DNA of 64,000 nt from a bacterium (GTDB lineage Bacteria > Patescibacteriota > Dojkabacteria > JAKAPS01 > JAJZLI01). A program made the position numbers and the translations under genes. Positions 8 through 29,302 of this stretch are shown in pieces; position 1 is the stretch's first letter; each line of letters starts with the position of its first letter. The stretch is taken from positions 10,529 to 74,528 of the forward strand of contig JAJYFR010000002.1 of assembly GCA_021785355.1 (NCBI GenBank). The letters run 5' to 3'. The notes under the pieces were generated by a model. It saw only the letters and a list, made by a program, of their open reading frames with translations. It made no database searches and was not told the origin of the DNA.

Positions 8-3000
8 TTAAAAAGATGAAACTACTGTGTAAATTATATTTGTCTGGTAAGTTCCTGCAGCCTGAGTTGAAGGCACTGCAACCTTATAGTAAATAGTATA
101 AGCAGTTGGATTACCGGTATAATTTGCCCCTGTTATATTTGTCGTATTTTGAGCAACAGTATCTCCTGGTCCAGTTAAAGAAAAAGGTGCATAGAGAGTA
201 CCAGATGAAAATAGATTTGATCCATTTATATCTGTTGCAGAACTTGTATATCCAAAACCATAATCACCCGATGGCCATAGAGCTGGAGAAGCATATGTGC
301 CTACAGAAAAATTAGGTATTGTATTACCTTCTTGAGATTGCATCAAACCTGATTCATAAGCAAAAATAGAATATCCATTATAAGCATTTGTAAGCACAGA
401 TATTGTGGATGTATTTGTTGTTGTATATGAATTTGTAGCATTCCAATTTCCCATATTAATATTTGTAGAATTCAAAGAAAATGATAATGTAGGCATTACT
501 GATTGACCCGAGGATGTCACTTGAGTACTTAATCCCGCATTATTTGTAGCTATAACTGTAACATAATAAGTCATACCAGTTTCCAAAGATAGAGATGATA
601 CACTATCTGTATTATAAGGAGAAGGATTATTTAATACTATACCCGAACTAGATAAAGAATAAATATTATTTGAACCTGGTGTAGTTCCGATTTCTACCTG
701 ATAAGGAGTAGATGCAAGCCCTGAACATGAATCAGAAAATCCTGTCCAATTACTAGATATTTCAGATATGGATTGAGTTGATTGAACCTCAGTTCCATTA
801 ATGTTTCCATCAAAAACAGAACCAGCTGTGGGAGCTGTATCTGCAACAGAAAAATTAGGATTGATTGTATTAAATACAGTAGGAGAACTAAGACCTACTG
901 AATTTTTTACAAAAGCTTGCCAATGATATCCTGCACAATTAGTAAGTCCAGTTACATCTACTGTTCCTGTAACTGATGTACCTGAGTAACTTACTGCACT
1001 CCCTGAATAATTAGGAGTTCCTGAAAAAGCTGTTCCATTTGGTTCTATCTCTATCTCAGGTGTAAGAGTATCCGTAGAGTTAGGAGAAGACATAGAAATA
1101 GTAAATACTATATTGGTAGAGACTCCCGATGAAGTCCATGTATCATTTGTTATTGCAGTTGTTCCATTAGAATCAAATTGAGCAAGAGATGATGGAGCAT
1201 TTGGAGATGAACTACCAGAAGGATAAAAATTATATTCAAAATTTATATTAATAGAAGATGAATTGGCTAAATTGTCATAAATCATAATATTTAAATAATA
1301 CATTCCTGCTGTAGAAAGAGATGATGAAGCATAACCTTCTGTGCTCTGAGTTGTACTTGGATAACCAGTAGCACTTGTACCAAAATATACACCATAATTA
1401 TTTATAGCAGAACCGTTATCAAATCCTCCTAAAAATTCGAAATATGGTGTAGGATATGAATATGGAGTAGGATTATCATAATTTAAAACTGATATACCTG
1501 AAGTGTTTTCAACATTAACATTATCTATATTCATATTAATACTATCAGAAGTACTATCTGTTACAGCACCTAGACTAAGGGTTGTCATGTTTGATACTCC
1601 TGTATTTTGAGAAGATAGAGAGGCTTGAAGTTGACCATTTAGATAGGATAATAAAGAACCTGTAGTAGAGTTTATATTTATATTTAAAATTATATAATTC
1701 CAAGTATTGAGAGGAACTATATTTGTACCTTGAGCATTAGTTGTACCTACAGAATTAACTTCTTGTATAACTGGTCCAGAAGCTGTATCTAAAAGATTTA
1801 AAGACGCTATTATGCCAGAAGCTCCAGAGATTTGAGCTAAAGTAATACTGTCTCCAGATGCAGCATATGCAACTGATGAAATATACATATAAAATCTAAC
1901 TTGAGCAGAAGATGTATTAAAGGTGTTATTAGTTATATAACTAGTACCTGCAGATGCTGTTGTCATATTGACAGAATAATTTCCTTGAAGTACTGCACCT
2001 TGAGTACTACTTTGAATTAATGGAAGTGCACTTCCTCCGTCAGAAGTCCATGCTCCAGAAGGAGAATCTGAAGTAAGTATTGTTCCAGATTCAAATCCAT
2101 TTGAAAATAATAAAGATGGCTTAGAAGACCAGCCTAACACTCCAATACTATTTGTTATCGGAGAAGATGCATCTATAGCAAAATCTGGATTTCCTCCCAT
2201 AGCAACCCATGAACTTATACCTCCATTACCAATCACTGCAGCTTGCCAGTGATATTGAGTATTTGGACTAAGCCCAGAAACTTCAATATTTGCAATAATA
2301 GATGTTCCTGAATATGAGTATAAAGAAGATTCATATACTCCTGTTCCTGTCGTAACTAAATTCGTAGTAGAACTAGTAAAAGCAGTCCCTTTTGGCTGTA
2401 TCTCTACCAAAAGATATAAAGAATCTGGATTATTAGTACTAGATATACTTGCACCTAGTAATAGATTAGTATTATTTATCCAAGAACCAGAACTCACAGT
2501 ACTTGATGCAATAGAAGAAGTTGATATAGTCAAACCAGTTGGAATGGGTATTGTTGAATTTGCATTAATAGTAACTTCAGAAGAAGGAAGAGTTTCTCCT
2601 GAAGAAGTAACCGCTGTCACCTTATAATAATAAGTTTGATTATATGGAATATCTCCTCCTATAGGATTTGTTGATGAAGACGAAATTGTAGGTGCAGTAT
2701 TTCCTGTTGTAGGCGGATTACTTGTGACAGTAGTATTAAGTCCTGAATCTATGAAAGAAAGCTGTGAACCATTATTAACTTGAAAATATTGTCCTTCACC
2801 TCCTGAAGTTATACCTCTATATATTTTATATGAAGTTGCCCCTGAGACTGCTGACCAAGAAATTGTATTCTGGTTAGTATTTGTATATGCAGTACTAGCA
2901 CTAGATAAAAGACCTATTGGAAAAGAATATACAGAAGAAAAAAATGCAGCTCCATTGTAACCTCCTATCTCATATACATAACCTCCATAGGTTACTGAAG

Positions 3001-6000
3001 TGGCATATTCTGTTGTTTGAGGAAGATATGATGTAGATGACCATGTACCTACTACACCAGGACTACTTATTGGTGCATAATATACTGAAGAAGAGTATAT
3101 TTGAGTTCCAGTATTAAATCCTCCTATTACATATATATACCCTGCATATTCTACAGATGTTGCTTGTTGTATAGCAAAGGAAAGAGATGTTGTTGTTGTC
3201 CAAGCAGTACCTAGAGCTCCATTTGAAGTTATTGATATAGAATAAACTGTAGATAAATCTGAACTTGCACCATATCCCCCTATCTCATATATATATCCTG
3301 CATATACAATTGATGTAGATCTACTAATAATCTGAGGTAAAGAAGTTGTTGTTGCCCAACTACCTAATGTACCATCTGAATTTATAGGAACATAATAAAC
3401 AGTACTTACCCTAGCACTTGTAGTTGAACTATACCCTCCTAAAAAATATATATAACCTCCATATGTAACAGATGTTGCAAATTCAATAGGCTCAGCAGTT
3501 CCTCCTCCAGAGCTTGTCTCTCCTATAGAAGTAGTCGTATTCCAACTACCTAATGTACCATCTGAATTTATATGAGAATAATATACTTCAGATAAATTGC
3601 TACTTCCATTATATCCTCCTAATACATATATATAACCTCCATATTCTACAGAGGTTGAATATAAAACTGCTTGAGGTAGACTAGCTGTTAGTGTCCAAGA
3701 TCCAATATTTCCATTATTGTATATTTGAGCATAATATACAGAGGAAAGATTTGTTGTTCCGCTTATTCCTCCTATCTCATATATATAACCTGCATACTCT
3801 ACAGAGGTTGCTCCATCTATACCAGATAAAAGAGAGGTTGTATTATTTAAAGTTCCTAAAGAACCATTTGAATTTACAGGAACATAGTATACTGTATTTA
3901 CTGCACTATTACCTGTATTATTCCCTCCTATCTCATATATATATCCGTTATATACTACTGAGGTAGAATAATCTAAAGCTTGAGGTATAGATGTTGTTGT
4001 ATACCATGAACCCAATGTGCCGTCTGTATTTATCTGAGCATAATATACACTCGATATATTATTGCTTCCATTATACCCTCCTATCTCATATATATAACCA
4101 TTGTATTCTACAACTGAAGCTCTATCTATTACTATAGGAAGAGAAGTTGTTGCTAACCAAGAAGTGCCTAGCGTTCCATTTGAATTTATAGCTATATAAT
4201 ATACAGAAGATACGTACGCTCCAGAACTAGCATTTCCTCCTATCTCATATATATAACCATTGTACACTACTGATGTTGAATATGCGTCTCCTGAACTTGT
4301 TGTAAGTGAAGTTGTATCTGCCCATGTACCCAAAGATCCATTACTATTAATAGCCACATACTCTACTACTGTAGTTATTGCAGAATTTTGTCCCCCTATC
4401 TCATATATATACCCTCCATACTCTACAGAGGTTGCTAGTTCTGATGCAGTAAGAAGAGAAGATGTTGTTGCCCATGTACCCAAAGATCCATTACTATTAA
4501 TAGCTGCATATTCTACTATAGTAGAAGCTGCTCCAGATATATTACCTCCTATTTCATATACATACCCATTATACACAACAGATGTTGCAATACTTGTAGA
4601 ATCAAGAAGTGAAGATGTTGTTGCCCATACTCCTGTAGTCCCATCTGAATTTATAGGAGCATAATAGACACTTGTTCCTCCAGAACCTCCTATTTCATAT
4701 ACATATCCAGCATATTCTACTGATGTAGCTTGATTTATAGCTTCAGGTAAACTTAACATGTTATTCCATAAATTAATCGTACCATTTGTATGAACTACAG
4801 TATAATTTACTTCTGATAAAGAAGCAGTCCCATTATATCCTCCTACTTCATATATATAACCTCCATCCTCTACAGAAGTTGCTCTTTCTGTAACTTGAGG
4901 AAGGGTATTTGTACTAGTCCAGGTACCTAGTGTGCCATTTGAATTTATTGGAACATAATATACACTAGATACTGCTGCACTTCCATTATACCCACCTATC
5001 TCGTATATATATCCATTATACTCTACAGATGTTGCACTATATATGGTTTCAGCTGTACCTCCTCCTGAACTTGTTTCTCCTAAAGCAGTTGTGGCTGTCC
5101 ATGTACCTAGTGTGCCATTTGAATTTATTGGAACATAATATACACTAGATACTGCTGCAGTAGTATATCCACTTATTTCATAAATATATCCATTATATTC
5201 TACAGATGTTGCACTAGATGTTGCACTAGGTAAAGCAGTTGTTGTTGTCCATGTCCCTACAGTTCCATTAGCATTTATAGGAGCATAATACACACTAGCT
5301 CCAGGTCCTGTACCTCCAATACAATAAAGATATCCATTATATGCTATTGATGTGGAATTATATGCAGTTTGTGCAGTACCGCCTCCTGAACTTGTTTCTC
5401 CTAAAGGAGTAGTTGTATTCCAAGAACCTAAACTTCCATTCGATTGTATTTGTGCATAATATACAGTTGATAGAGTAGCACTTCCATTATACCCTCCTAT
5501 CTCATAGATATATCCTGCATATTCTGATGAAGTAGATTCTGCAACCACTTGTGGAAGTGAGCTCGTTGCATTCCATGCACCTAATTCTCCATTACCATAT
5601 ACTTGTGAATAATATACAGAAGAAGAAGATACTCCTCCAATCTCATAGAGAAAACCATTATATGTAACTGAAGTTGCATATTCTAATAATTGAGGAATTC
5701 CAGAACTATAAAAATTTCCAAGACTACCATCTATATTATTCCAATTAATATTTCCAGTATCTATAAAAGTTGTATTTTTAGTGTCTATATATTGAGTCAT
5801 CACAGAAGATCCAATTCCTCTATATACACTATATTCAATAGCACCTACAACAGGAGTCCAAGATATTTTATTTTCTGAAGTAGATCCTGTAGTTGTTATT
5901 GAAACTGCACTAGAAGGTGGTGTTTTACCCTGTGAAGTTATAGAAGATACCTCATAATAATATGTATTAGCTGAAAGTGTACCTCCCACAGTTGATTGAG

Positions 6001-6709
6001 TAAGAGAGCTAGGAGCATTTGGAATAGGAAGTACAGTAAAACTAACAGCATTTGAAGTATTTGAAGTCGCAGTAACAATAATATTTCCAGAAGTAGACCC
6101 TGTAGGAACAAAAAATATAATAGTGCTAGTATCCCAAGAAAAAACATCTGCAGTAGGTACAGCAACTCCATTTAAAGTTATATTGTTAGTTGTAGTATCA
6201 TAATTACCTGATCCTGGATCAGCACCAAATTCATTCCCATTTATTGTAATAGTAGATCCTACCCCACCTGATGATGGAGATAGGGATGTAATACAAGGGA
6301 GAAGTGAAAATGCAATAGAAGCAGTTTTTCCTCCTACAGTAACAACAATATTACCAGTAAGAGTACCTGTATTTGAAATCGTTCCGGTTATTGATGTATT
6401 TGCCCAAGTAGAGACAGTAAAAGTACCTCCATTTACAGTAACACCATCATTTGTAGATCCAAACTTGGAACCATTTATAGTGATTCCATCCCCCACTCTT
6501 GCAGCACTTACTCCATTTGCTATAGTAGACCCACAAGTTGTGGAAGTTAAATTTACAGAAGATATTGAAGGTGGAGGAGCAGCTTCAATAAAAATACCTG
6601 TTAAAAGTAATATTGAAAAAAGTATTAAAGTTATAACAAAACTAATAAAAAAGAAGATATAGTAATTGTATCTTTTATGTATAAGAAATATTATTTTAAA
6701 AGGATTCAT
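8..6709 (-). CDS. Giant secreted/surface protein (2233 aa). N-terminal signal/TM, IPT/TIG-like and FN3-like domains, about 18-20 Kelch-type beta-propeller repeats (unit ~51 aa, motif YNGYIYEIGG...VYY.PINSNGTLGTW), a second FN3-like region, then a C-terminal WxL-like module shared with three other proteins in the window.
   Basis: Single uninterrupted ORF. The repeat consensus carries the diglycine and conserved Tyr/Trp spacing of Kelch repeats. FN3-like YYYEV/YYYKV motifs are present. The C-terminal ~150 aa aligns with the C-termini of 27327..28427, 29365..31209 and 32081..33499. Confidence 0.75.
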   Translation of the reverse strand: MNPFKIIFLIHKRYNYYIFFFISFVITLILFSILLLTGIFIEAAPPPSISSVNLTSTTCGSTIANGVSAARVGDGITINGSKFGSTNDGVTVNGGTFTVSTWANTSITGTISNTGTLTGNIVVTVGGKTASIAFSLLPCITSLSPSSGGVGSTITINGNEFGADPGSGNYDTTTNNITLNGVAVPTADVFSWDTSTIIFFVPTGSTSGNIIVTATSNTSNAVSFTVLPIPNAPSSLTQSTVGGTLSANTYYYEVSSITSQGKTPPSSAVSITTTGSTSENKISWTPVVGAIEYSVYRGIGSSVMTQYIDTKNTTFIDTGNINWNNIDGSLGNFYSSGIPQLLEYATSVTYNGFLYEIGGVSSSSVYYSQVYGNGELGAWNATSSLPQVVAESTSSEYAGYIYEIGGYNGSATLSTVYYAQIQSNGSLGSWNTTTPLGETSSGGGTAQTAYNSTSIAYNGYLYCIGGTGPGASVYYAPINANGTVGTWTTTTALPSATSSATSVEYNGYIYEISGYTTAAVSSVYYVPINSNGTLGTWTATTALGETSSGGGTAETIYSATSVEYNGYIYEIGGYNGSAAVSSVYYVPINSNGTLGTWTSTNTLPQVTERATSVEDGGYIYEVGGYNGTASLSEVNYTVVHTNGTINLWNNMLSLPEAINQATSVEYAGYVYEIGGSGGTSVYYAPINSDGTTGVWATTSSLLDSTSIATSVVYNGYVYEIGGNISGAASTIVEYAAINSNGSLGTWATTSSLLTASELATSVEYGGYIYEIGGQNSAITTVVEYVAINSNGSLGTWADTTSLTTSSGDAYSTSVVYNGYIYEIGGNASSGAYVSSVYYIAINSNGTLGTSWLATTSLPIVIDRASVVEYNGYIYEIGGYNGSNNISSVYYAQINTDGTLGSWYTTTSIPQALDYSTSVVYNGYIYEIGGNNTGNSAVNTVYYVPVNSNGSLGTLNNTTSLLSGIDGATSVEYAGYIYEIGGISGTTNLSSVYYAQIYNNGNIGSWTLTASLPQAVLYSTSVEYGGYIYVLGGYNGSSNLSEVYYSHINSDGTLGSWNTTTSIGETSSGGGTAEPIEFATSVTYGGYIYFLGGYSSTTSARVSTVYYVPINSDGTLGSWATTTSLPQIISRSTSIVYAGYIYEIGGYGASSDLSTVYSISITSNGALGTAWTTTTSLSFAIQQATSVEYAGYIYVIGGFNTGTQIYSSSVYYAPISSPGVVGTWSSTSYLPQTTEYATSVTYGGYVYEIGGYNGAAFFSSVYSFPIGLLSSASTAYTNTNQNTISWSAVSGATSYKIYRGITSGGEGQYFQVNNGSQLSFIDSGLNTTVTSNPPTTGNTAPTISSSSTNPIGGDIPYNQTYYYKVTAVTSSGETLPSSEVTINANSTIPIPTGLTISTSSIASSTVSSGSWINNTNLLLGASISSTNNPDSLYLLVEIQPKGTAFTSSTTNLVTTGTGVYESSLYSYSGTSIIANIEVSGLSPNTQYHWQAAVIGNGGISSWVAMGGNPDFAIDASSPITNSIGVLGWSSKPSLLFSNGFESGTILTSDSPSGAWTSDGGSALPLIQSSTQGAVLQGNYSVNMTTASAGTSYITNNTFNTSSAQVRFYMYISSVAYAASGDSITLAQISGASGIIASLNLLDTASGPVIQEVNSVGTTNAQGTNIVPLNTWNYIILNININSTTGSLLSYLNGQLQASLSSQNTGVSNMTTLSLGAVTDSTSDSINMNIDNVNVENTSGISVLNYDNPTPYSYPTPYFEFLGGFDNGSAINNYGVYFGTSATGYPSTTQSTEGYASSSLSTAGMYYLNIMIYDNLANSSSININFEYNFYPSGSSSPNAPSSLAQFDSNGTTAITNDTWTSSGVSTNIVFTISMSSPNSTDTLTPEIEIEPNGTAFSGTPNYSGSAVSYSGTSVTGTVDVTGLTNCAGYHWQAFVKNSVGLSSPTVFNTINPNFSVADTAPTAGSVFDGNINGTEVQSTQSISEISSNWTGFSDSCSGLASTPYQVEIGTTPGSNNIYSLSSSGIVLNNPSPYNTDSVSSLSLETGMTYYVTVIATNNAGLSTQVTSSGQSVMPTLSFSLNSTNINMGNWNATNSYTTTNTSTISVLTNAYNGYSIFAYESGLMQSQEGNTIPNFSVGTYASPALWPSGDYGFGYTSSATDINGSNLFSSGTLYAPFSLTGPGDTVAQNTTNITGANYTGNPTAYTIYYKVAVPSTQAAGTYQTNIIYTVVSSF
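2950..5700 (-). repeat. Intragenic Kelch-repeat-encoding array. It contains long identical DNA sub-repeats: a 57-bp identity at 4923-4979 versus 5103-5159, and a 35-bp identity at 4320-4354 versus 4470-4504.
   Basis: The reverse-complement YIYEIGG motif (cctcctatctcatatatata-like) recurs roughly every 150-180 bp. The exact duplicate strings are read directly from the sequence. Confidence 0.7.
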
Positions 6710-9232: not shown

Positions 9233-10069
9233 TTAAGGAACACTAGACTGAGTCTTCATTGGTACATTAATAGTATGAGAATGTTGCATATAATGAGATA
9301 GTGTAGAAACAAGAGAATAGGAAGATATGATAAGTACTAGAGTAATCACAAAATATAATACTGCAACTATTATTCCTGCAATTGTCCACTTCTTTTGTGT
9401 TTTATAAAAAGAATCTAAATCTATCCACTTTTTATTTTTCCATGAGATTTGATATCCTTTATGTCCTAAATAGTAAGCCAGGAAAGAGATATACACTAAA
9501 AATACAAAGGTCAGAATAATATTTATAACATATATTCCATTATATTTTGTGACCACTCCTATAGTAGACAATATAATCAATAAAAATACATATCCTATAA
9601 ATACATATAAAGGAATAAAGTATCCATTAAAAATACCCCATAACCATGTGAAAAAAAATGCACCCCAATTCCATTTAAAAATACCTTCAGGTGATGAAGT
9701 TATTTTTGTGTTTTCATTTTTACCTGAATCATTTTGACTATAATCTTGATTTGAATTCTCCTCTTGAGTATTTGATGTATATATCTCTTTATTATTAGAA
9801 TTCATATTATTCTCTAATGTGTTAGTATTTCCTAATAAATCACTACTGACATTCTCATTTGTTATTAAAGGTTGAGAATCATTTAGATTAGTAGATTGAT
9901 TTGCTTGAGATACTGTATTATTTTCTTGTGGATTTAGAGTATTGTTCTCTTGATTAAAAGAATTATTCAAAGATTCTGTACTATTAGGATTTACATTATT
10001 AATATCAGCACTATTATTCAAAGAATTACCTTCTTCATTATTCTGTTTTTGTATTAGATCATCATTCAT
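9233..10069 (-). CDS. Membrane protein with an Asn/Ser/Gln-rich low-complexity N-terminus and a C-terminal polytopic domain (WNWGAFFFTWLWG, DUF2628-like).
   Basis: Low-complexity N-terminal half. The C-terminal half has 3-4 TM helices, with an aromatic motif similar to DUF2628 family proteins. Confidence 0.45.
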   Translation of the reverse strand: MNDDLIQKQNNEEGNSLNNSADINNVNPNSTESLNNSFNQENNTLNPQENNTVSQANQSTNLNDSQPLITNENVSSDLLGNTNTLENNMNSNNKEIYTSNTQEENSNQDYSQNDSGKNENTKITSSPEGIFKWNWGAFFFTWLWGIFNGYFIPLYVFIGYVFLLIILSTIGVVTKYNGIYVINIILTFVFLVYISFLAYYLGHKGYQISWKNKKWIDLDSFYKTQKKWTIAGIIVAVLYFVITLVLIISSYSLVSTLSHYMQHSHTINVPMKTQSSVP

Positions 10070-10134: not shown

Positions 10135-10539
10135 TTAACGCTTTGAGAATTGAGGAGATTTTCTTGCTTTTACTCTGAAATATTTCTTTCTTTCAACCAT
10201 TCTAGAATCTCTTGTAAGTAAACTATTTTTAGATAAAGTACTTTTATAAGATGGATCTATTTTCGAAAGAGCTCTAGAAAGTGCTAATACTGTAGCTTTT
10301 ACTTGAGAATATATACCTCCACCACTACTTTTTACTGTAAAATAAAAACCATCAAGAGTACCTGTTATTTTTAATGGTTGAGAAATTAAAGATCTAGAAT
10401 ATAAATCTTTATAATATTCTTCATATGGTTTTCCATTTACAAAACTCTCACCTTTTCCAGAGTAAAGTCTAACACTCGAAGTTGATGTCTTATTAGTTCC
10501 TTTTGCGTAATAATAATTTTTACTTTTTTTATTTTCCAT
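10135..10539 (-). CDS. rpsI: 30S ribosomal protein S9.
   Basis: C-terminal ...RKKYFRVKARKSPQFSKR signature. Lies downstream of rplM, as in the canonical order. Confidence 0.9.
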   Translation of the reverse strand: MENKKSKNYYYAKGTNKTSTSSVRLYSGKGESFVNGKPYEEYYKDLYSRSLISQPLKITGTLDGFYFTVKSSGGGIYSQVKATVLALSRALSKIDPSYKSTLSKNSLLTRDSRMVERKKYFRVKARKSPQFSKR

Positions 10540-10542
10540 ATT

Positions 10543-10971
10543 TTATTTTATATTTATAAATTGTTTATCTTCATATTCATGCTTTCCTTCAGGATACACA
10601 TGTAAATACTTAAGTCTTAGATCTCTTAATTTATTCTTAGGTAGCATTCCTCCTACTGCATTAGTTATAACAAATTCAGGATTCTTCTCTATTTTTTCTG
10701 ACAAAGATTTCTCTTTTAATCCACCTGGATAACCAGAATGGGTATAATACATCTTTGTATTTATTTTTTTATCCGAGATTTTTAAAAATTTAGAATTAAT
10801 AACAACCACATGGTCTGAAAAAACCAAATTTGAAGAATAATCTGTTTTATGTTTTCCAATCAACAATTTTGATATCTCAACTGATATTTTTCCTAAATTT
10901 GCATCCTTAGCATCTATTAAATACCAATTTCTTTTTAATTCTTTTACTGAGCTAAATTTTGTTTTAAACAT
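10543..10971 (-). CDS. rplM: 50S ribosomal protein L13.
   Basis: N-terminal WYLIDAKDANLGKISVEISKLLIGKHK matches the L13 consensus. Confidence 0.9.
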   Translation of the reverse strand: MFKTKFSSVKELKRNWYLIDAKDANLGKISVEISKLLIGKHKTDYSSNLVFSDHVVVINSKFLKISDKKINTKMYYTHSGYPGGLKEKSLSEKIEKNPEFVITNAVGGMLPKNKLRDLRLKYLHVYPEGKHEYEDKQFINIK

Positions 10972-10975
10972 ATAA

Positions 10976-11329
10976 TCAGTCTACTAATTTAATCTTAACT
11001 ATTCTAGCATTATCACCTTTCCTTTGTCCTATATGTACTATACTTGTAAAACCAGACATTCTTTCTTTATACCTATCTTTTAATATATCTAATACTTTAT
11101 CTGCAGAAAGTTTTGTAGGTAACATAGCATAAAGTCTTCTACGTGCATTTAAATCACCTTTTTTTCCTACAGATATTATTCTATCTACTAGAGAAGATAC
11201 AGCTTTTGCTTTTGCTTCAGTAGTTTTAACTTCTTCATACTGAATTATAGAAGCTGCTAAATTCTTTAGCATAGCATCTCTATGTGATTTTACTTTATTT
11301 AATTTTTTTACTCTTTTTTGGTGTCTCAT
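10976..11329 (-). CDS. rplQ: 50S ribosomal protein L17.
   Basis: MRHQKRVKKLNKVKSHRDAMLKNLAASII matches the L17 N-terminus. Follows rpoA. Confidence 0.9.
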   Translation of the reverse strand: MRHQKRVKKLNKVKSHRDAMLKNLAASIIQYEEVKTTEAKAKAVSSLVDRIISVGKKGDLNARRRLYAMLPTKLSADKVLDILKDRYKERMSGFTSIVHIGQRKGDNARIVKIKLVD

Positions 11330-12098
11330 CTTTATCTATTTTTTTTGTTGATTTTTTAACTTTTTCTTTTTTTTCTAAATCTACAACTATTTGTTCATTT
11401 AAATTATTAAATACATTACATACCTCTACTAATGCAGATTTTAATGCTAATGTAGGATTTATTGATTTTGTATGAATATCTATTATAACTTCATCCAAAT
11501 CAGTATTCTCCCCCACTCTAGTATTAACTACATTGAAATTTACAATACTAACGGGAGAAAAATCTGCATCTACAGGAATTGTACCAATAGAGGATCTTTT
11601 AGTGTTATCTACTAAACTATATCCATAAGATGTCTCCAATACCAATTCCATGTTCAATTTAGATTTAGAATCAGTTAGAGTTGCTACAATAGCTTCAGGA
11701 TTTAATATTGTTACTGAATCTGTCAATTCTATATCTTTAGCTGTAACAATTTTTTCTCCTTTCTGAGATATTTTAAGAACTTGAGGTTCATCTGATCTAG
11801 AATAAAATTTCAATTCTTTTATATTTAAAATAATATTCAAAACATCCTCTAAAATACCATCTAAAGAAGCATATTCATGTTCAGCTCCTTCAATTTTTAC
11901 AGAAGTTATAGCAGAACCTTTTAGTGCTGAAAGTAATATCCTTCTTAGTGTATTACCAACTGTATATCCATATCCTTTATTTAAAGGTGATATAGAAAAT
12001 TTTCCGAAGAAATCATTTTCTTCTAATGTTTTTATTTGTTGTAAATTATTATCTATCATAAAGGTTTTATATATAAAATTATCTAGAATAAAGCTCAA
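11295..12098 (-). CDS. rpoA: DNA-directed RNA polymerase alpha subunit. Only the N-terminal dimerisation domain plus a Lys-rich tail is present; no alpha-CTD.
   Basis: GYGYTVGNTLRRILLSALKGSAITSVKIEGAEHEYA is the alpha-NTD signature. The ORF ends at 267 aa with KKEKVKKSTKKIDKDETPKKSKKIK and overlaps the rplQ start by 35 nt. Confidence 0.85.
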   Translation of the reverse strand: MSFILDNFIYKTFMIDNNLQQIKTLEENDFFGKFSISPLNKGYGYTVGNTLRRILLSALKGSAITSVKIEGAEHEYASLDGILEDVLNIILNIKELKFYSRSDEPQVLKISQKGEKIVTAKDIELTDSVTILNPEAIVATLTDSKSKLNMELVLETSYGYSLVDNTKRSSIGTIPVDADFSPVSIVNFNVVNTRVGENTDLDEVIIDIHTKSINPTLALKSALVEVCNVFNNLNEQIVVDLEKKEKVKKSTKKIDKDETPKKSKKIK

Positions 12099-12699
12099 CT
12101 ACTAAGTTAGGTTGCATACTAGGATCAAAGAACTCTTTTTGAGGAAAACTTATAACTTTTCCTTTTGTTCCTGATACTTCGATCCATTCAGGTATATTTA
12201 AGTCTACACCCAATAAAGGATCTTTAAAGTATTCACCTTTTGAACTTTTTAGTTTTACTTCGATTTCGTCATTTTCCTTTAATAAAGTAGATGGAATATT
12301 GTTTCCTTTCCCATTTATCATGAAATGTCCATGATTGACTAACTGTCTTGCTGCTACTCTATTAGGAGCATAACCCATTCTATATACAATATTATCAAAC
12401 CTTCTTTCTAATACCTGTAATAAGTTATATCCAGTATCTCCCGTTTGATTTTGAGCTATTTCATAATATCTTTTAAATTGTTTTTCTAATAAACCATAAA
12501 TTCTTTTTATTTTTTGCTTTTCTCTGAATTGAACAGAAAAGTCACTTTGTCTTCTATATGAATATCTATTAGAACCTGGCAAAGAACCATTTCTTTTGGT
12601 AAAAACACATTTCTGAGAATAACATTTAGCACCTTTTAAATAAAGCTTCTGATGCTCTCTTAAACATTGCTTACATTTTGATTCCGTATATCTAGCCAT
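12079..12699 (-). CDS. rpsD: 30S ribosomal protein S4.
   Basis: N-terminal Cys-rich MARYTESKCKQCLREHQKLYLKGAKC, and the S4 domain. Confidence 0.9.
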   Translation of the reverse strand: MARYTESKCKQCLREHQKLYLKGAKCYSQKCVFTKRNGSLPGSNRYSYRRQSDFSVQFREKQKIKRIYGLLEKQFKRYYEIAQNQTGDTGYNLLQVLERRFDNIVYRMGYAPNRVAARQLVNHGHFMINGKGNNIPSTLLKENDEIEVKLKSSKGEYFKDPLLGVDLNIPEWIEVSGTKGKVISFPQKEFFDPSMQPNLVVELYSR

Positions 12700-12713
12700 A
12701 ATATAAAAATAAA

Positions 12714-13127
12714 TTAATTTCTCGGTTGCTTTTTAGGCCTACATCCATTATGTGGTATAGGTGTTATATCAGAAAGTGAGAGAATTCTCAAGCCTGAATT
12801 TCTTAAACTTTTTACAGCCATTTGTCTTCCTGTACCAGGACCTGATATAAATACATCCACTTCTGATAAACCATATTTCACTGATTTATTAGTAGCGTCC
12901 TCTGCAACTCTTGAAGCTGCATAAGGAGTAGATTTTCTTGCACCTTTAAAACCTACAATACCTGAAGATGAAGATGATATTACATTACCTTCAGGATCCG
13001 TAATAGTTACAATAGTATTATTAAAAGAAGTAACTATATAAGCCCTACCTTTAGGAACCTTTCTTCTAACTTTCAACTGTTTTGTCTGTACTTTTTTAAC
13101 TGTATTCTTTATATTTTTATTTGCCAT
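12714..13127 (-). CDS. rpsK: 30S ribosomal protein S11.
   Basis: IVTITDPEGNVISSSSSGIVGFKGARKSTPYAA matches S11. Confidence 0.9.
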   Translation of the reverse strand: MANKNIKNTVKKVQTKQLKVRRKVPKGRAYIVTSFNNTIVTITDPEGNVISSSSSGIVGFKGARKSTPYAASRVAEDATNKSVKYGLSEVDVFISGPGTGRQMAVKSLRNSGLRILSLSDITPIPHNGCRPKKQPRN

Positions 13128-13128
13128 A

Positions 13129-13527
13129 TTATTTCTTTTCTATTTTTTTCTTTAAACCTCCAACTGCTATATGCTTACCCTTCCTTGTATGCGCATTATG
13201 TCTAGTTATTTGACCTCTTACAGGTAGCCCTAATCTATGCCTAATTCCTCTATAACAACGAATATCTCTTAACCTTTTTATATCTTGATATACTTTTTGT
13301 CTTAGGTCTCCCTCTATTAAGAAATCTCCTCTTTCTAAAATAGTTCTAATTCTAGAAATTTCATCTTCAGACAAATCATAAGTTCTTTTATTAATATCAA
13401 CTCTAGCTAAATTAAGAATTTTACGAGAAGATGAAAAACCTACACCATAAATAGCAATTAAACTTGCTTCTATTCTTTTTTTTAATGGCAGGTCTATTCC
13501 TGCTATTCTTACTTGACTATTTGCCAT
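13129..13527 (-). CDS. rpsM: 30S ribosomal protein S13.
   Basis: MANSQVRIAGIDLP...IYGVG N-terminus and a basic C-terminus. Confidence 0.9.
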   Translation of the reverse strand: MANSQVRIAGIDLPLKKRIEASLIAIYGVGFSSSRKILNLARVDINKRTYDLSEDEISRIRTILERGDFLIEGDLRQKVYQDIKRLRDIRCYRGIRHRLGLPVRGQITRHNAHTRKGKHIAVGGLKKKIEKK

Positions 13528-13532
13528 ATTAA

Positions 13533-13649
13533 TTATCCTTGTCTTTGCTTATGCTTTGGAGTACGTTTACAGTAAACGTAAACAATTCTCTGTCTTTTAA
13601 CAACATAACAACTATTACATATTTTTTTTACTGAAGATCGTACTTTCAT
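13533..13649 (-). CDS. rpmJ: 50S ribosomal protein L36 (38 aa). It is absent from the ORF track because it is so short.
   Basis: Manual translation of the minus strand gives [38 protein letters not shown]. This is the classic L36 C-x2-C...C...H zinc ribbon, lying between infA and rpsM as in the canonical order. Confidence 0.85.
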
Positions 13650-13654
13650 AAAAA

Positions 13655-13870
13655 TTAATAACGATAAACTATTCTTCCTCTACCTGGATCATAACGAGAA
13701 AACTCAACCTTAACCTTATCCCCTAGAAGTATCTTTATATAATGCATTTTCATCTTACCAGATAAATATGCAAATACCTCCTTACCTTCTTCTAATTGAA
13801 TTTTAAACGAAAGATCAGGATAAGCTTCTATAACCTTACCATCAAGTTCTATTTTATCTTTTGAACTCAT
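13655..13870 (-). CDS. infA: Translation initiation factor IF-1.
   Basis: The 71-aa S1-like OB fold ...[33 protein letters not shown] matches IF-1. Confidence 0.9.
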
Positions 13871-16316: not shown

Positions 16317-17063
16317 TTAATAATCAATATTTACTTGATAAATATTAGGATTAAAACTGTAAGTCCCATTAATATTACCTATTATATTGTTAATATTAAA
16401 AACAGGAGCAATATAAGTTTTTGAATTATTACTAATTAAAAATTTATTATATAAAATAATACTTGTATCATATAAAGGTATATTAACAACTTTATTAGAC
16501 TGCAATAAAGCTGATATATATTTAAAATATATTTTAATTCCAGAATATTTACCAACAGGTAATCTTATACTACTCAAATAATATACATTTTTAGTATATT
16601 CTTCTAAATTAACTAGCTTATTAGAAACTGGTATTTGAATCCATTTTAAAGTCCCCATTTTTTCAACTAAAACTTGAGAAATAGCCATATTTAAGACCTT
16701 TGGAGGGGTATAGAAGATAGCTCCTTTAACAACAGGGGATAATTCACCCATAATTCCAAAATTCAAAGTACCTTTTTCTTGTATTGAAGTACTTTGTACG
16801 TAATTTGATGTAAAATTTTGAGCTATATAAGGTGAACTTATTGTACTGTTAAGAGTTGCTCCTATCACTATTCCTAAAGAAAGTATTATAGAAGTAAATG
16901 TCATAAAGAATACAATTTTAAACCAATTTACTTCAGGATTACGATTTATCGGATTCTCTAAAGTATGTTTTATACTCATATTATTTCTTATGAACTTTAT
17001 AATAGTTAAGAATAGCTTTATATACTTGAGAACTTGTAGAAAGATTCTCTGTAAATAAGACAT
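16317..17063 (-). CDS. Hypothetical membrane-anchored protein. The likely true start is the internal Met at ~16979 (MSIKHTLENP...), which removes the overlap with the upstream gene.
   Basis: One TM helix near the N-terminus, then a putative extracytoplasmic domain. No recognisable motif. Confidence 0.4.
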   Translation of the reverse strand: MSYLQRIFLQVLKYIKLFLTIIKFIRNNMSIKHTLENPINRNPEVNWFKIVFFMTFTSIILSLGIVIGATLNSTISSPYIAQNFTSNYVQSTSIQEKGTLNFGIMGELSPVVKGAIFYTPPKVLNMAISQVLVEKMGTLKWIQIPVSNKLVNLEEYTKNVYYLSSIRLPVGKYSGIKIYFKYISALLQSNKVVNIPLYDTSIILYNKFLISNNSKTYIAPVFNINNIIGNINGTYSFNPNIYQVNIDY

Positions 17064-17970: not shown

Positions 17971-18957
17971 CTATAAATAAATATAAAAATCAGAACCTTT
18001 ATTCTCTATAGATTCAACTTTAAGAGTTGCTCCTATTTTTTCTAAACTTATTTTTGCTATATATAAACCTAATCCTAAACCTTCATAATCATAATTTAAA
18101 ACACTTGTTTTCCTCGAAAAAGGAACAAATATATTTTTAAGATTCTCAGGAGATATACCAATTCCTGTATCAGATATTTTAATAACCACTTTTTCAGTTT
18201 CTTTATATATAGAAACTGATATCAAACCTTCACTATGATTAAATTTGATTGAATTATCTATAATATTATTAATGCTTTTCTCTAAAATACTCTTGTCCGT
18301 AACTATAATCCCTATATGTTCATCAAAAGAAAATCCTACAGACATAGAAGATTCTTTAATTTTATTCTCTACTATATTTTTTACAAAATCAGAAAGATTT
18401 ACGTCTTCTTTTACTACTTTAAAATCAGGAGAATCTAGATATACTAAAGATAGAATTTCTTCATTTATTAAATTTAATTGTTTTAAAGAAGTATTTATTC
18501 TTTTTATTATTTGTAAGTCTTCTTCAGAAATATTTTTACTAGAACTAAGTATTTCTACATAACCAGAGATTGTAACCATAGGAGTTCTAAGATTATGAGA
18601 TACTACATAGATAAAATCTTCTTTCATTTTATCTACAGATAAAGCTTTCTTATTATTTTCAAAAATAACAGAAGTAATATTATCTATATTTTCTTTAAGA
18701 TTTATAAATTCTTTATTTTGAAATTTTGGAGAAAAATTAAAATCATTATCTTTCAATTTACTATTTAATTCAGAAAGCTTTGATAGATCAGATATATAAC
18801 TTTCTGATATATAGATAATGCCTATAAGAATAAGTGATAATACTGCTATTAGTATAAACACATATATCCTGAATCCTATCAATAAGATGAGTAAAACAGA
18901 ATATAGAATAAGAACTAATACACTAACTGTATATAGAACACTTTTTCTACTAAACAT
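17971..18957 (-). CDS. Sensor histidine kinase (2 TM helices, HisKA and HATPase_c domains).
   Basis: H-box VVSHNLRTPMVTISGY. G-boxes DTGIGISPENLKNIFVPFSR and GLGLGLYIAK. Confidence 0.8.
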   Translation of the reverse strand: MFSRKSVLYTVSVLVLILYSVLLILLIGFRIYVFILIAVLSLILIGIIYISESYISDLSKLSELNSKLKDNDFNFSPKFQNKEFINLKENIDNITSVIFENNKKALSVDKMKEDFIYVVSHNLRTPMVTISGYVEILSSSKNISEEDLQIIKRINTSLKQLNLINEEILSLVYLDSPDFKVVKEDVNLSDFVKNIVENKIKESSMSVGFSFDEHIGIIVTDKSILEKSINNIIDNSIKFNHSEGLISVSIYKETEKVVIKISDTGIGISPENLKNIFVPFSRKTSVLNYDYEGLGLGLYIAKISLEKIGATLKVESIENKGSDFYIYL

Positions 18958-25660: not shown

Positions 25661-26464
25661 TTACAACAGAATATAAATAAAATATATAATAAAAAGTAAT
25701 ATATTGAATATGAATATATATAAATTAAGAGTTGTATGATCTAAAGCTAAAATAATAGCAGATATTATATATAAAACCAGATAATCTCTTATAAATCTTA
25801 AAATATTTTTAAATTTAGAATCATTCCTAATTTTTCTTACAAAGAACAAGAAAAGCATTGTCCCTAAAATAATTACAGATATTAAGATATTAATAGCACC
25901 AATTATAAATCCAGGAGTATCTATAGATCCAAATATATTATAATTAGTACTACTATTAGGATAATAAAAAATATTTATAGATTTTTTTATAACAATAGGA
26001 TACTCAGTATATGTTGTATCAAGAGCAATAACATTATACATTAAAGGTTTATTATAACTGGACTCCAAGAAAGCTATAGCTTCTCCATTCTTATTAGTAG
26101 GATTTTTAGGCTGAGTTATTATAAGCGAGTCTTTTTCCTGAGCAGATGAAAGTATAACTCTTTGATTAGATAAAGGATGATCTTTATTTGAAAAAACAAA
26201 AATCTTAACTTCTACCCTCTTTTTATAATACAAATTATTAGAAGAGAGTGATATTTTTGTGTTATTTGCTATTAAATTAGACCAATTCAATAAAAGAGGA
26301 GTATAACCTCCTACAGTTACACTACTTGCATTTATTGGTTTTACAAAAAATATAAATACTAATAGTAATAATATTACCTTTTTAAGAATCTGGAAACGAT
26401 TTGCCATAATAAAAAGATAAATAACAAAACTAATAAAAATATAAACCATAGAGGTAATACCCAA
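25661..26464 (-). CDS. Signal-peptide protein with a beta-rich ectodomain and 2-3 C-terminal TM helices. The probable true start is Met20 at ~26407 (MANRFQILKK...).
   Basis: It is not an ATP synthase a-subunit: there is a large soluble domain and no conserved Arg-containing helix. It is the first gene of the minus-strand surface-protein operon. Confidence 0.4.
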   Translation of the reverse strand: MGITSMVYIFISFVIYLFIMANRFQILKKVILLLLVFIFFVKPINASSVTVGGYTPLLLNWSNLIANNTKISLSSNNLYYKKRVEVKIFVFSNKDHPLSNQRVILSSAQEKDSLIITQPKNPTNKNGEAIAFLESSYNKPLMYNVIALDTTYTEYPIVIKKSINIFYYPNSSTNYNIFGSIDTPGFIIGAINILISVIILGTMLFLFFVRKIRNDSKFKNILRFIRDYLVLYIISAIILALDHTTLNLYIFIFNILLFIIYFIYILL

Positions 26465-27315
26465 AATGTGCTAGTACTTTGAGTTGTAGTTATTGTATTA
26501 TAACCATATGTTAGAATTAGTTTAGCAGTATACTGTCCTAAAAGAAGATTTGATGAATTCCAAGTAGTATTATATATCCTACTATTAACTCCCACTGGAA
26601 GTACTATATTTTTTTGAGGATTGAAAGCTATTGTCTGAATTTTATCTCCAAACATATTATAAATCTCAATAATACCTTGAGGCAATAAATGTACATTACC
26701 TGTATCTACAAATTGGGTTTGAAATTTAACAGGAGTTGAAAGATAAAAGAAATTATTAGCTGAAAATGATTTTATATATCCTGTCTCTTTAGCTAAACCG
26801 TTTATTCTGACTAGAAATAATGAACCTACTGCAGTATTTAGTAATACATTTCCTTGAGACACTCCATTATTAATTTTAGCAAAAACTCCAATAAAATATT
26901 CTCCAGGAAGTGCATTCGAAGAAGCAGATATATTAATGCTCAAATCTGTAGGCACATGAGGAGGTATTAGAGTATTACCATTAGTACTTAACGAAAGATC
27001 TGGATCATTTATATTTCCTACAAAAACTTTCTCAAATTTGGGTTGACCAAATTCATTTGCAGATACAAAATTAGCAAATATAGCACTTACATTTACAGCA
27101 CTATTACTATTATTATAAACCGTGATATCTTGTACTAAACTTTGACCTTTATTAATATTTACATCTGTTAGTATAGGAGAGACAGTTATACCGCCAACAC
27201 TTGCACCTTCTTTTGAAGAATTTGAGTTATTTATATTTCCTACAAAACTACTTTGAGCATAAAGAGGAGATGGCAGTATAAATAACAAAAGTAAAATTAA
27301 TAATATTTTTTTCAT
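26374..27315 (-). CDS. Cell-surface anchor protein with signal peptide, beta-rich ectodomain, single C-terminal TM and a basic tail (DUF916/DUF3324-like, CscA-like). Paralog of 31212..32096 and 33499..34371.
   Basis: GYIKSFSANNFFYLS...TGNVHLLPQGIIEIYNMFG...LILTYGYNT aligns with GFVKTFSTSNFFNFS...TGDIELAPQGFIIIKNLWG...LILNYGYGS in 31212..32096. C-terminal TM followed by SRFLKR. Confidence 0.5.
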   Translation of the reverse strand: MKKILLILLLLFILPSPLYAQSSFVGNINNSNSSKEGASVGGITVSPILTDVNINKGQSLVQDITVYNNSNSAVNVSAIFANFVSANEFGQPKFEKVFVGNINDPDLSLSTNGNTLIPPHVPTDLSINISASSNALPGEYFIGVFAKINNGVSQGNVLLNTAVGSLFLVRINGLAKETGYIKSFSANNFFYLSTPVKFQTQFVDTGNVHLLPQGIIEIYNMFGDKIQTIAFNPQKNIVLPVGVNSRIYNTTWNSSNLLLGQYTAKLILTYGYNTITTTQSTSTFWVLPLWFIFLLVLLFIFLLWQIVSRFLKR

Positions 27316-27326
27316 GCAATTTCATA

Positions 27327-28427
27327 TTAGAAGTTACCACTAGCTAGATATGTAACATTATCTGTATAGATACCGGCAGGCGTCACAACTGAAATAGCTG
27401 AAAGATAATTCACTTGTAAAGTAACTAAGTATATTGGTGAAGTTGTACTTGCAAGTAATGTAGGTGCAAGATTCAATCCTCCAACTGAATCACCTGTTCC
27501 ATTATATGGTGAAGCAACAGTAAGCGTTCCTACAACTCCTCCAGAACCAGCAGTTGAAGTTACTGCTGAATTTACTCCATATCCTTCTGTCCCTGCAGCA
27601 AGAGTTGCTGTTGCACTAGGAATAGTATGTGTTGCTAAAGAATTATATAAACCTGGATTAGTACCATTGCCTTGATCATATACAGTCACACTAGCACCTG
27701 ATCTAGCATTTGTTGATAAAGTAAGTGTTGTAGCAGGAGAAGAAGTATTAACTGATCCTATTTGCAAAACTCCAAAATTTGTAGCATTAGAAGACAATGC
27801 AAAAGTTATCTCAGGAGTTACTCTTGCTGTAACAGCAACTGTGCTATTAGATAATATAGGTACAGCTAAATATCCATCATCTGATGCAGAATCTGTAACA
27901 TCTATAACATATTCATTCACAGAAGTAGATGCATCAGGAGGATTAGTTGCAGTTATACCATTAATGACAATAGCATTTCCAGATGCAATTGCAGCTGTAG
28001 TTGTTATGACAACTTCAGTAAATGTATATCCTGAAAAATTAGAATCTGATACACCTGTAGTTACTACAAAATTCGTATTTGTAGCAACTGTAGTCCCTGC
28101 AGCCGTAACAGTTGCGCCTGAAGAAACAGCTACTGCAGAAAATCCTGTATTAGTCTGCCCACCTCCTACCGTAGAACCTGTTTGAAAATACACATTTATT
28201 GTAGATCCTGTACCAAGTGCAGTAGGTGCTGTATATGTAATTTTATGATTAACTCCTGTTGCAGATATAGATTCAGGACCATTTGTTCCTATACCTGAAG
28301 AAGATAATGTGTCAGATATTGGAGAAAGTGATGCTGCATTTAAACTAAAAAACTCTAAGAATGGAGATAGTGAAACCACTAAAACCATAGATAAAAATAA
28401 CATGAAAGCTTTTCTTGTTTTATACAT
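27327..28427 (-). CDS. Secreted surface protein. Its N-terminal beta-rich domain is shared with 29365..31209, and it carries the C-terminal WxL-like module.
   Basis: Signal peptide ...LNA|AS. INGITATNP block is shared with the 614-aa protein. C-terminus ...TPAGIYTDNVTYLASGNF. Confidence 0.5.
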   Translation of the reverse strand: MYKTRKAFMLFLSMVLVVSLSPFLEFFSLNAASLSPISDTLSSSGIGTNGPESISATGVNHKITYTAPTALGTGSTINVYFQTGSTVGGGQTNTGFSAVAVSSGATVTAAGTTVATNTNFVVTTGVSDSNFSGYTFTEVVITTTAAIASGNAIVINGITATNPPDASTSVNEYVIDVTDSASDDGYLAVPILSNSTVAVTARVTPEITFALSSNATNFGVLQIGSVNTSSPATTLTLSTNARSGASVTVYDQGNGTNPGLYNSLATHTIPSATATLAAGTEGYGVNSAVTSTAGSGGVVGTLTVASPYNGTGDSVGGLNLAPTLLASTTSPIYLVTLQVNYLSAISVVTPAGIYTDNVTYLASGNF

Positions 28428-28510
28428 ATGCGCACTAAATTAATAATATTAAAATCTATTACAAAAACTCTATATTAAATGAAATAATATGTCAATAGTT
28501 TTTTTAATAT

Positions 28511-29302
28511 TTAAAATATTAATATTAAATATCCTAATACTAAAGTTACCATAAAAATAAATATTAGGGATATAATAATAAAAACAAGATTTTTTTCTAT
28601 AGAATCTTTTGATAAAGGATTTCTAGATATACCCAATAAAGAGTGTTTTAAAGAGACACTAACTCCATATATAAGAGTAAATACACCAACTGATATTATT
28701 AAAATAGCTATAAGAGAGTTAAAAAAAGAAACATTTTTTCCAACAACTGCTTTACCAAATGAAAGTAATATTCCCGAAAAATTATTATTATATGTAAAAT
28801 ATGATATTCCTAAAAGAACAGGTATTTTTTCTACTAAAATTTGAACACTCTTCCCATTTTGAAAAATAGTTTTTTTATATAAAAAATGTGAGAATGAAAA
28901 ATTACTCAAAGCTTTTCCTAAAATTTTTCCACTCTGGGTATCTTTTTCCCCGACACCAGGGATAATAGAAGATGTTATATAATCCCCTTTTTTAATAACT
29001 CCATTAATATTTGAAACTAAAACATTAACAGTTCCAGAACTTACAACAGGAACATTGCCAGATATACCGGTTGTAATATTACTTTTATAATCAACTACAC
29101 CTACAAGATTATTATCATTCGGAGATGTAGTTGGATATACACCTAATACAATATTATTTCCTCCAACAGAAACTATTGAATTATTTGAAATATTTTTTAC
29201 TAATGGAGCAAAATATTGAGATATACTCTGAGCATAAAGAGAAGAAGATAGAAAAAATAATATAGTTAATATATAAAAACTGATTTTAAAAAATTTATAC
29301 AT
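28511..29302 (-). CDS. Secreted protein with a C-terminal TM anchor. Paralog of 19792..20544.
   Basis: Shared motifs VSNINGVIKKGDYITSS..PGVGEK, RNPLSK and the terminal TM ...LGYLILIF. Confidence 0.5.
   Translation of the reverse strand: MYKFFKISFYILTILFFLSSSLYAQSISQYFAPLVKNISNNSIVSVGGNNIVLGVYPTTSPNDNNLVGVVDYKSNITTGISGNVPVVSSGTVNVLVSNINGVIKKGDYITSSIIPGVGEKDTQSGKILGKALSNFSFSHFLYKKTIFQNGKSVQILVEKIPVLLGISYFTYNNNFSGILLSFGKAVVGKNVSFFNSLIAILIISVGVFTLIYGVSVSLKHSLLGISRNPLSKDSIEKNLVFIIISLIFIFMVTLVLGYLILIF

Follow-up and report, generated by a model that had tools for sequence, protein, structure and literature searches.

An RNA polymerase alpha subunit lacking the C-terminal domain in a Patescibacteria clade, with a lysine-rich tail encoded partly within rplQ

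Bacterial RNA polymerase (RNAP) has an alpha subunit, the product of rpoA, that is 329 aa long in Escherichia coli and 314 aa long in Bacillus subtilis, and the domain at its C-terminus (alpha-CTD) recognises UP elements, serves class I activators as their target and makes contact with NusA. Here we describe the rpoA locus in a 64-kb stretch of DNA (~26% GC; hereafter the window) from contig JAJYFR010000002.1 of a Dojkabacteria assembly, in which the alpha subunit ends soon after its N-terminal domain (alpha-NTD). The alpha-NTD is known to be enough for alpha2-beta-beta' to assemble and for basal transcription, the binding of UP elements and activators being the task of the CTD (PMC8321222, PMC13374769). 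Natural loss of the alpha-CTD has been described for the rpoA products of Hodgkinia, Tremblaya and the Euglena chloroplast (Rangel-Chavez et al. 2021, PMC8321222). The same paper devotes one sentence only to a further group, stating that the loss ‘is also present in Parcubacteria’; RNA polymerase is absent from the text of the source cited for this statement (PMC4508563), and rpoA is found there only in a supplementary core-gene table. An engineered counterpart exists in B. subtilis, where RNAP with a CTD-truncated alpha (RpoA-del) assembles, binds DNA and elongates, and where growth continues with a doubling time lengthened from 1.0 h to 1.9 h and with less transcription of ribosomal and secondary-carbon-source genes (Murayama et al. 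2015, PMC4495994). Our literature searches combining rpoA or alphaCTD with Patescibacteria found no paper, and a 2025 survey calls the alpha-CTD ubiquitous in Bacteria (PMC12531629).

The rpoA gene of the window (11295-12059, minus strand) most likely encodes 254 aa followed by a TAA stop. Its product retains the alpha-NTD as residues 1-229 (11373-12059, minus strand; PF01193 and PF01000), comprising the dimerisation and insert domains that form the platform for beta/beta' assembly. In Pfam searches both PF01000 (E 3.1e-25) and PF01193 (E 1.8e-12) scored over their gathering scores, and PF03118, the alpha-CTD family, gave no match even at E up to 1. The NCBIfam RpoA models aligned over approximately positions 1-250 of their 298-344. 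Because the CTD is missing, the protein falls under the curated cut-off of every NCBIfam RpoA equivalog model, TIGR02027/PRK05182 included (211.4 bits against 227.8 for TIGR02027, 227.7 against 277 for NF003519), and annotation pipelines should expect CTD-less RpoA below such equivalog cut-offs. Alpha chains in the PDB were matched at E 6e-50, with 37-43% identity between the window alpha-NTD and the solved alpha structures and an alignment reaching only about residue 247 of 315.

The start of the gene most likely lies at ATG 12059 rather than at TTG 12098, from which the longest open reading frame (ORF) of a mechanical ORF list runs to 11295 and yields 267 aa. The TTG sits within the 3' end of rpsD (12079-12699), the homologous products all begin with MI(D/E/N)xxLQ, and the exact database entry for the protein (P0001, 100% identical) is 254 aa long, all of which points to the ATG, located 19 nt past the rpsD stop. 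Gene prediction on four independent contigs called rpoA with an extent consistent with 254 aa. The original prediction that the alpha subunit ends after the NTD thus holds, while the length of 267 aa given there is to be shortened to 254 aa.

An AlphaFold2 model computed from a 33-sequence alignment had a mean predicted local distance difference test score (pLDDT) of 87, with block means of 75-96 over residues 1-229 (most blocks >90) and values <50 for precisely residues 230-254. A Foldseek search with this model retrieved RNAP alpha chains (E ~1e-25, target template modelling score 0.8-0.9, root-mean-square deviation ~2-3 Å). Since the NTD motifs are conserved, among them the invariant GNxLRRxLLSS, the window alpha-NTD should still form alpha2 and nucleate alpha2-beta-beta' assembly. 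For the missing part, we constructed a custom hidden Markov model (HMM) of the CTD from 88 CTD-bearing relatives. It detected the CTD in the positive controls L090 and L060 (E 1e-20 and 1e-18, respectively) and gave no hit when the window was translated in all six frames (best E 0.13), nor did it match any CTD-less locus within the ~68 kb of DNA retrieved from relatives. [quoted passage not shown]

We regard a natural, heritable and lineage-wide loss of the alpha-CTD, producing a minimal alpha in a small-genome clade of Patescibacteria (candidate phyla radiation, CPR), as the probable explanation. In such a scenario rpoA would have been reduced to a complete NTD plus a 25-residue disordered Lys-rich tail. 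An alpha-CTD encoded separately elsewhere, through a split gene or a fusion, and acting in trans appears very improbable, and we know of no example of a detached alpha-CTD. What leaves room for it, and weighs against a true loss, is that the window covers only 64 kb of a genome for which the longest contig carrying the identical protein measures 757 kb. Opposed to it are the failure of the CTD profile to match either the six-frame window translation or any CTD-less locus fetched, and the dependence of classical CTD function on a tether to the NTD (reviewed in PMC13374769).

In principle the same picture could arise from a frameshift made in sequencing or assembly, or from a pseudogene, the true gene then running on into a CTD, and two A8 homopolymer runs in the tail-coding region (11330-11375, minus strand) are potential slippage sites of the error-prone kind. 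However, the identical 254-aa protein with the identical junction occurs on 21 contigs, and four of these loci come from ENA and Logan records with four different sample accessions; despite the A8 runs, the tail protein sequence is the same across the independent assemblies. Six other species have the same architecture, the space downstream of rpoA is filled by rplQ and rplM, and no frame of the window encodes a CTD. The probability left to an artefact is practically negligible, and the possible frameshift at the rpoA-rplQ junction, against which the original prediction had cautioned, can be set aside.

The distribution of the CTD was surveyed by a homologue search in a collection of 5.8 billion proteins. 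The 15 most similar proteins (52-100% identical, 247-279 aa) all lack PF03118, so that the short RpoA length first seen in the window extends to its nearest relatives. Below ~50% identity most matches are alphas of 300-321 aa with a CTD, labelled Dojkabacteria, Daviesbacteria, Gottesmanbacteria and Microgenomates, and CTD-less forms, one of them labelled Yanofskybacteria, are scattered among them. Among GTDB species loci recovered via the NTD, the CTD is missing in only 6 of 80, namely one Uhrbacteria, one Nealsonbacteria, two Saccharibacteria and two labelled just ‘bacterium’. The Nealsonbacteria locus (L073) belongs to a complete genome of 689 kb; the CTD is kept in another Nealsonbacteria metagenome-assembled genome (MAG), a Paceibacterota MAG and a Patescibacteria MAG. 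Many apparent CTD-less proteins of high-GC organisms among 150 representatives were rejected, as their Arg/Ala/Pro-rich nonsense tails resemble frameshifted gene calls, and they were left out of the counts.

In a rough neighbour-joining tree of 221 NTD columns, the window clade adjoins Dojkabacteria-like CTD-bearing sequences and stands apart from a large CTD-less group to which the Yanofskybacteria sequence belongs. Elsewhere in the tree, several separate branches of Patescibacteria mix other CTD-less sequences with CTD-bearing ones, which suggests that the CTD was lost several times independently in Patescibacteria. The number of independent losses is uncertain and the placement of the window clade approximate, the tree being built from a single domain by neighbour joining and carrying no support values, and this too counts against the fuller form of our explanation. 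The window protein is another natural CTD-less alpha, from a lineage that appears distinct from the Parcubacteria group.

Some alphas found in this survey depart from the usual organisation in other ways. Two proteins, P0129 (526 aa) and P0137 (664 aa), are apparent single-chain tandem alphas with diverged copies, in the domain orders NTD-NTD-CTD and NTD-CTD-NTD-CTD, respectively, and could be covalent alpha dimers. A third, P0127 (569 aa), shows an exact internal duplication that is probably an assembly artefact.

As to the consequences of a CTD-less alpha, promoter use would rest on sigma and core contacts alone, and the reading of UP elements and activation via alpha-CTD contacts would be unavailable. 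Any regulators would have to work through sigma region 4, through the beta flap, through the alpha-NTD or as repressors; that some regulation exists is indicated by a histidine kinase encoded in the window (17971-18957). The atypical architecture of promoter recognition and activation originally proposed for this organism follows in so far as UP-element reading and CTD-dependent activation are lost. Its restriction to this organism does not hold, for the trait is one of a clade, is already described in other reduced genomes and is mentioned for Parcubacteria.

The 3' end of rpoA (DETPKKSKKIK-stop) and the 5' end of rplQ (MRHQKRVKKLNK) share 35 nt in different frames (11295-11329, minus strand). 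The rpoA stop is the TAA at 11295-11297, made by the Leu-Asn-Lys codons of L17, and rplQ starts at 11329, so that the last 11 alpha residues (DETPKKSKKIK) are what the basic beginning of L17 yields in a different reading frame. These coordinates and the L17 match corroborate the overlap as originally noted, together with the statement that it leaves no room for a CTD. An overlap of exactly 35 nt is also present in six related species (L005 and L085-L089; 58-77% identity), that is, in all seven members of the subclade when the window is included. The more distant CTD-less relative P0017 has a gap of 2 nt between rpoA and rplQ, and the nearest CTD-bearing relative, P0016, with an alpha of 309 aa, has a gap of 15 nt. 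It was probably after the loss of the CTD that the rpoA frame of the subclade was extended by 35 nt into rplQ. On the contig of P0016 (L090, 2446-3039) the L17 product has a long extension and measures 197 aa, compared with the usual ~117 aa.

An overlap of ~35 nt between rpoA and rplQ was found in two other CTD-less branches as well (L062, ~3252-3286, and L073, ~3183-3217), whose alpha tails end as the out-of-frame L17 starts MRKRKKGRKL and MKKRKKGRKL. The recurrence suggests that the overlap may be a repeatable outcome after CTD deletion. We considered whether the conserved DETPKKSKK(I/T)K end reflects selection on alpha rather than on L17, but a codon-by-codon comparison of the seven species gave six variable sites in the overlap, three silent in L17 and three silent in RpoA, and this 3:3 split is uninformative. 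As the same nucleotides encode the start of rplQ, it is not possible to attribute to alpha the conservation seen over the final 11 residues of the tail.

The tail itself (residues 230-254, KKEKVKKSTKKIDKDETPKKSKKIK; 11298-11372, minus strand) was delimited by composition and by its pLDDT <50. It contains 13 K in 25 residues (52%) against 7% in the NTD and 6% in the other window ORFs (9,040 residues), in keeping with the Lys-rich end of ~25 residues in the original prediction. In the first search 38 proteins lacked the CTD, and every one of them has a tail of 22-59 aa in which K+R make up 23-42%; the median net charge of these tails is +7. Linkers in 79 relatives that bear a CTD have medians of 8% K+R and -6 net charge. 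Within the last 12 residues, the K+R median is 6 in CTD-less and 3 in CTD-bearing forms (Mann-Whitney p ~1e-19 for sequences that are not phylogenetically independent).

Three CTD-less relatives, P0117 (L091, 1138-1923), P0169 and P0184, have the AT-hook-like KKRGRPKK as their extreme C-terminus, an end found in none of the CTD-bearing relatives. Two further proteins gave weak matches, both below the Pfam cut-off: P0209 (L092, 641-1639) has an acidic linker followed by two SAP/Ish1-like repeats (PF18953, E 8e-5), and P0132 (L093, 1-825) shows a C2H2-like zinc-finger match (PF00096, E 0.004). The genes of both lie directly upstream of rplQ, L092 having the full rpsD-rpoA-rplQ context. Judged by these sequence motifs, the SAP-like and zinc-finger matches and the AT-hook-like ends favour the view that some DNA-contacting appendage tends to stay at the alpha C-terminus.

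A flexible poly-lysine tail could touch the very AT-rich DNA found upstream of promoters non-specifically, by electrostatic or minor-groove contacts, and would so stand in crudely for the tethered CTD. We propose only tentatively that the Lys-rich tail contacts upstream DNA non-specifically and so replaces the CTD, on the grounds of its composition, its predicted disorder, its recurrence among relatives and a precedent in archaea. Archaeal Rpo13 needs its disordered Lys-rich C-terminal tail to bind dsDNA non-specifically (PMC3479171), although it is an unrelated subunit with a different position in its enzyme from that of the window alpha. Roughly equal in likelihood, and to be held with the same reserve, is the view of the tail as a tolerated remnant without function, consisting of leftover interdomain linker and read-through into rplQ. 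The remnant would owe its lysine to the 26% GC of the genome (AAA codons) and to an L17 N-terminus that is basic in any frame, and its last 11 codons, with their evenly split variable sites, lie in the rplQ overlap. It would further explain why tail length and sequence drift by indels, close relatives ranging from 254 to 279 aa.

Several observations that favour the remnant weigh correspondingly against a DNA-contacting tail. K-rich linkers are already present in the closest relatives that bear a CTD, P0016 (net charge +5) and P0019 (+4), so the window tail may be an inherited linker. The CTD-less L024 (Uhrbacteria) and L006 have no basic end. The conservation of the tail end is confounded by the rplQ overlap, and the GRP core of the AT-hook does not occur in the window tail, which has one TPKK of the S/T-P-K-K type (residues 246-249), itself inside the overlap. 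On the other hand, AT bias was rejected as the sole cause of the K-rich tail, for K reaches 52% there and 6-7% in the NTD and in the other proteins encoded in the window, and basic ends turn up both in separate branches and where the locus has 44-48% GC (L062, L091). The typical linkers of CTD-bearing relatives are acidic, the tails of L014 and P0017 are basic without any overlap, and AT-hook-like motifs and the weak zinc-finger or SAP-like matches occupy the same place in relatives, all of which weighs against a remnant.

A broader generalisation, that Patescibacteria lost the CTD repeatedly and each time replaced it by a simpler tethered DNA-contact element, seems to us rather unlikely. The candidates for replacement would be poly-lysine/TPKK-type tails in the window clade and AT-hooks, a zinc-finger-like motif and SAP/HeH-like repeats in relatives. 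Selection on alpha would then keep a flexible tether to upstream DNA and not the CTD fold, and the tails would amount to a minimal ‘UP-reader’ of a kind not described before, fitted to genomes that are very AT-rich and poor in activators.

The rpoA gene lies in an alpha operon composed of infA, rpmJ (13533-13649, minus strand), rpsM, rpsK, rpsD, rpoA, rplQ, rplM and rpsI (10135-13870, minus strand), as assigned by Pfam analysis of the called genes, and the neighbourhood rpsM-rpsK-rpsD-rpoA-rplQ is kept as in bacterial RpoA loci. Directly upstream of rpoA is rpsD (ribosomal protein S4; 12079-12699, minus strand; PF00163 and PF01479). Downstream, rplQ (10976-11329, minus strand) encodes ribosomal protein L17 of 117 aa, which matches PF01196 over profile positions 1-97 of 97 (E 2e-26) and has a canonical L17 N-terminus (MRHQKRVKKLNKVKSHRDAM). 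The rplM gene starts 4 nt after rplQ, and the two occupy all the space downstream of rpoA. No unassigned coding space or terminator-like site was found within 10135-13870. A promoter-pattern scan around the operon returned fewer sites than shuffled sequences, and its result was not used.

Elsewhere in the window, a 2,233-aa ORF with Kelch repeats (8-6709, minus strand; PF01344 and PF24681) nearly reaches the window edge and lies in the GC-richest part (33-35% versus ~26%). Several ORFs of 250-370 aa without a Pfam match are located at 9233-10069, 16317-17063 and 25661-29302 (all minus strand); one, directly downstream of rpsI, is Asn/Ser-rich with predicted membrane segments, and four others form a run adjoining the ATP synthase genes. 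The RNA genes of the window are two tRNAs, with no rRNA.

Compared with canonical bacterial RpoA, the window protein has an orthologous NTD of the same fold and the same position between rpsD and rplQ, and is without the linker-tethered helix-hairpin-helix CTD (PF03118). It resembles the alphas of Hodgkinia, Tremblaya and the Euglena chloroplast in keeping the NTD and losing the CTD, with the same presumed consequence that UP elements are not read, but it comes from a CPR lineage and not from an insect endosymbiont or a plastid. Its Lys-rich tail and conserved 35-nt rplQ overlap are not described in PMC8321222, and no description of such an overlap or of a recurrent basic tail was found in the literature searched. 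CTD-less CPR enzymes would show that the CTD is dispensable in small genomes, where few regulators are presumed, and would define a minimal bacterial alpha. They also offer a comparative test of the physical contribution of the tethered CTD: if the basic or AT-hook tails contact DNA, a folded domain is replaceable by a generic, flexible tether to DNA, and if they do not, the clade is simply another case of reductive evolution. With B. subtilis RpoA-del the window protein shares an alpha ending soon after the NTD, but RpoA-del is a laboratory construct acting on promoters and activators that evolved with the CTD, whereas the window truncation is an evolved state. Archaeal Rpo3/RpoD and eukaryotic Rpb3/AC40 likewise provide an alpha-like assembly platform without a bacterial-type CTD (PMC13374769); the window protein differs from them in being of the typical bacterial alpha-NTD homodimer type, and with respect to the CTD they are not orthologous.

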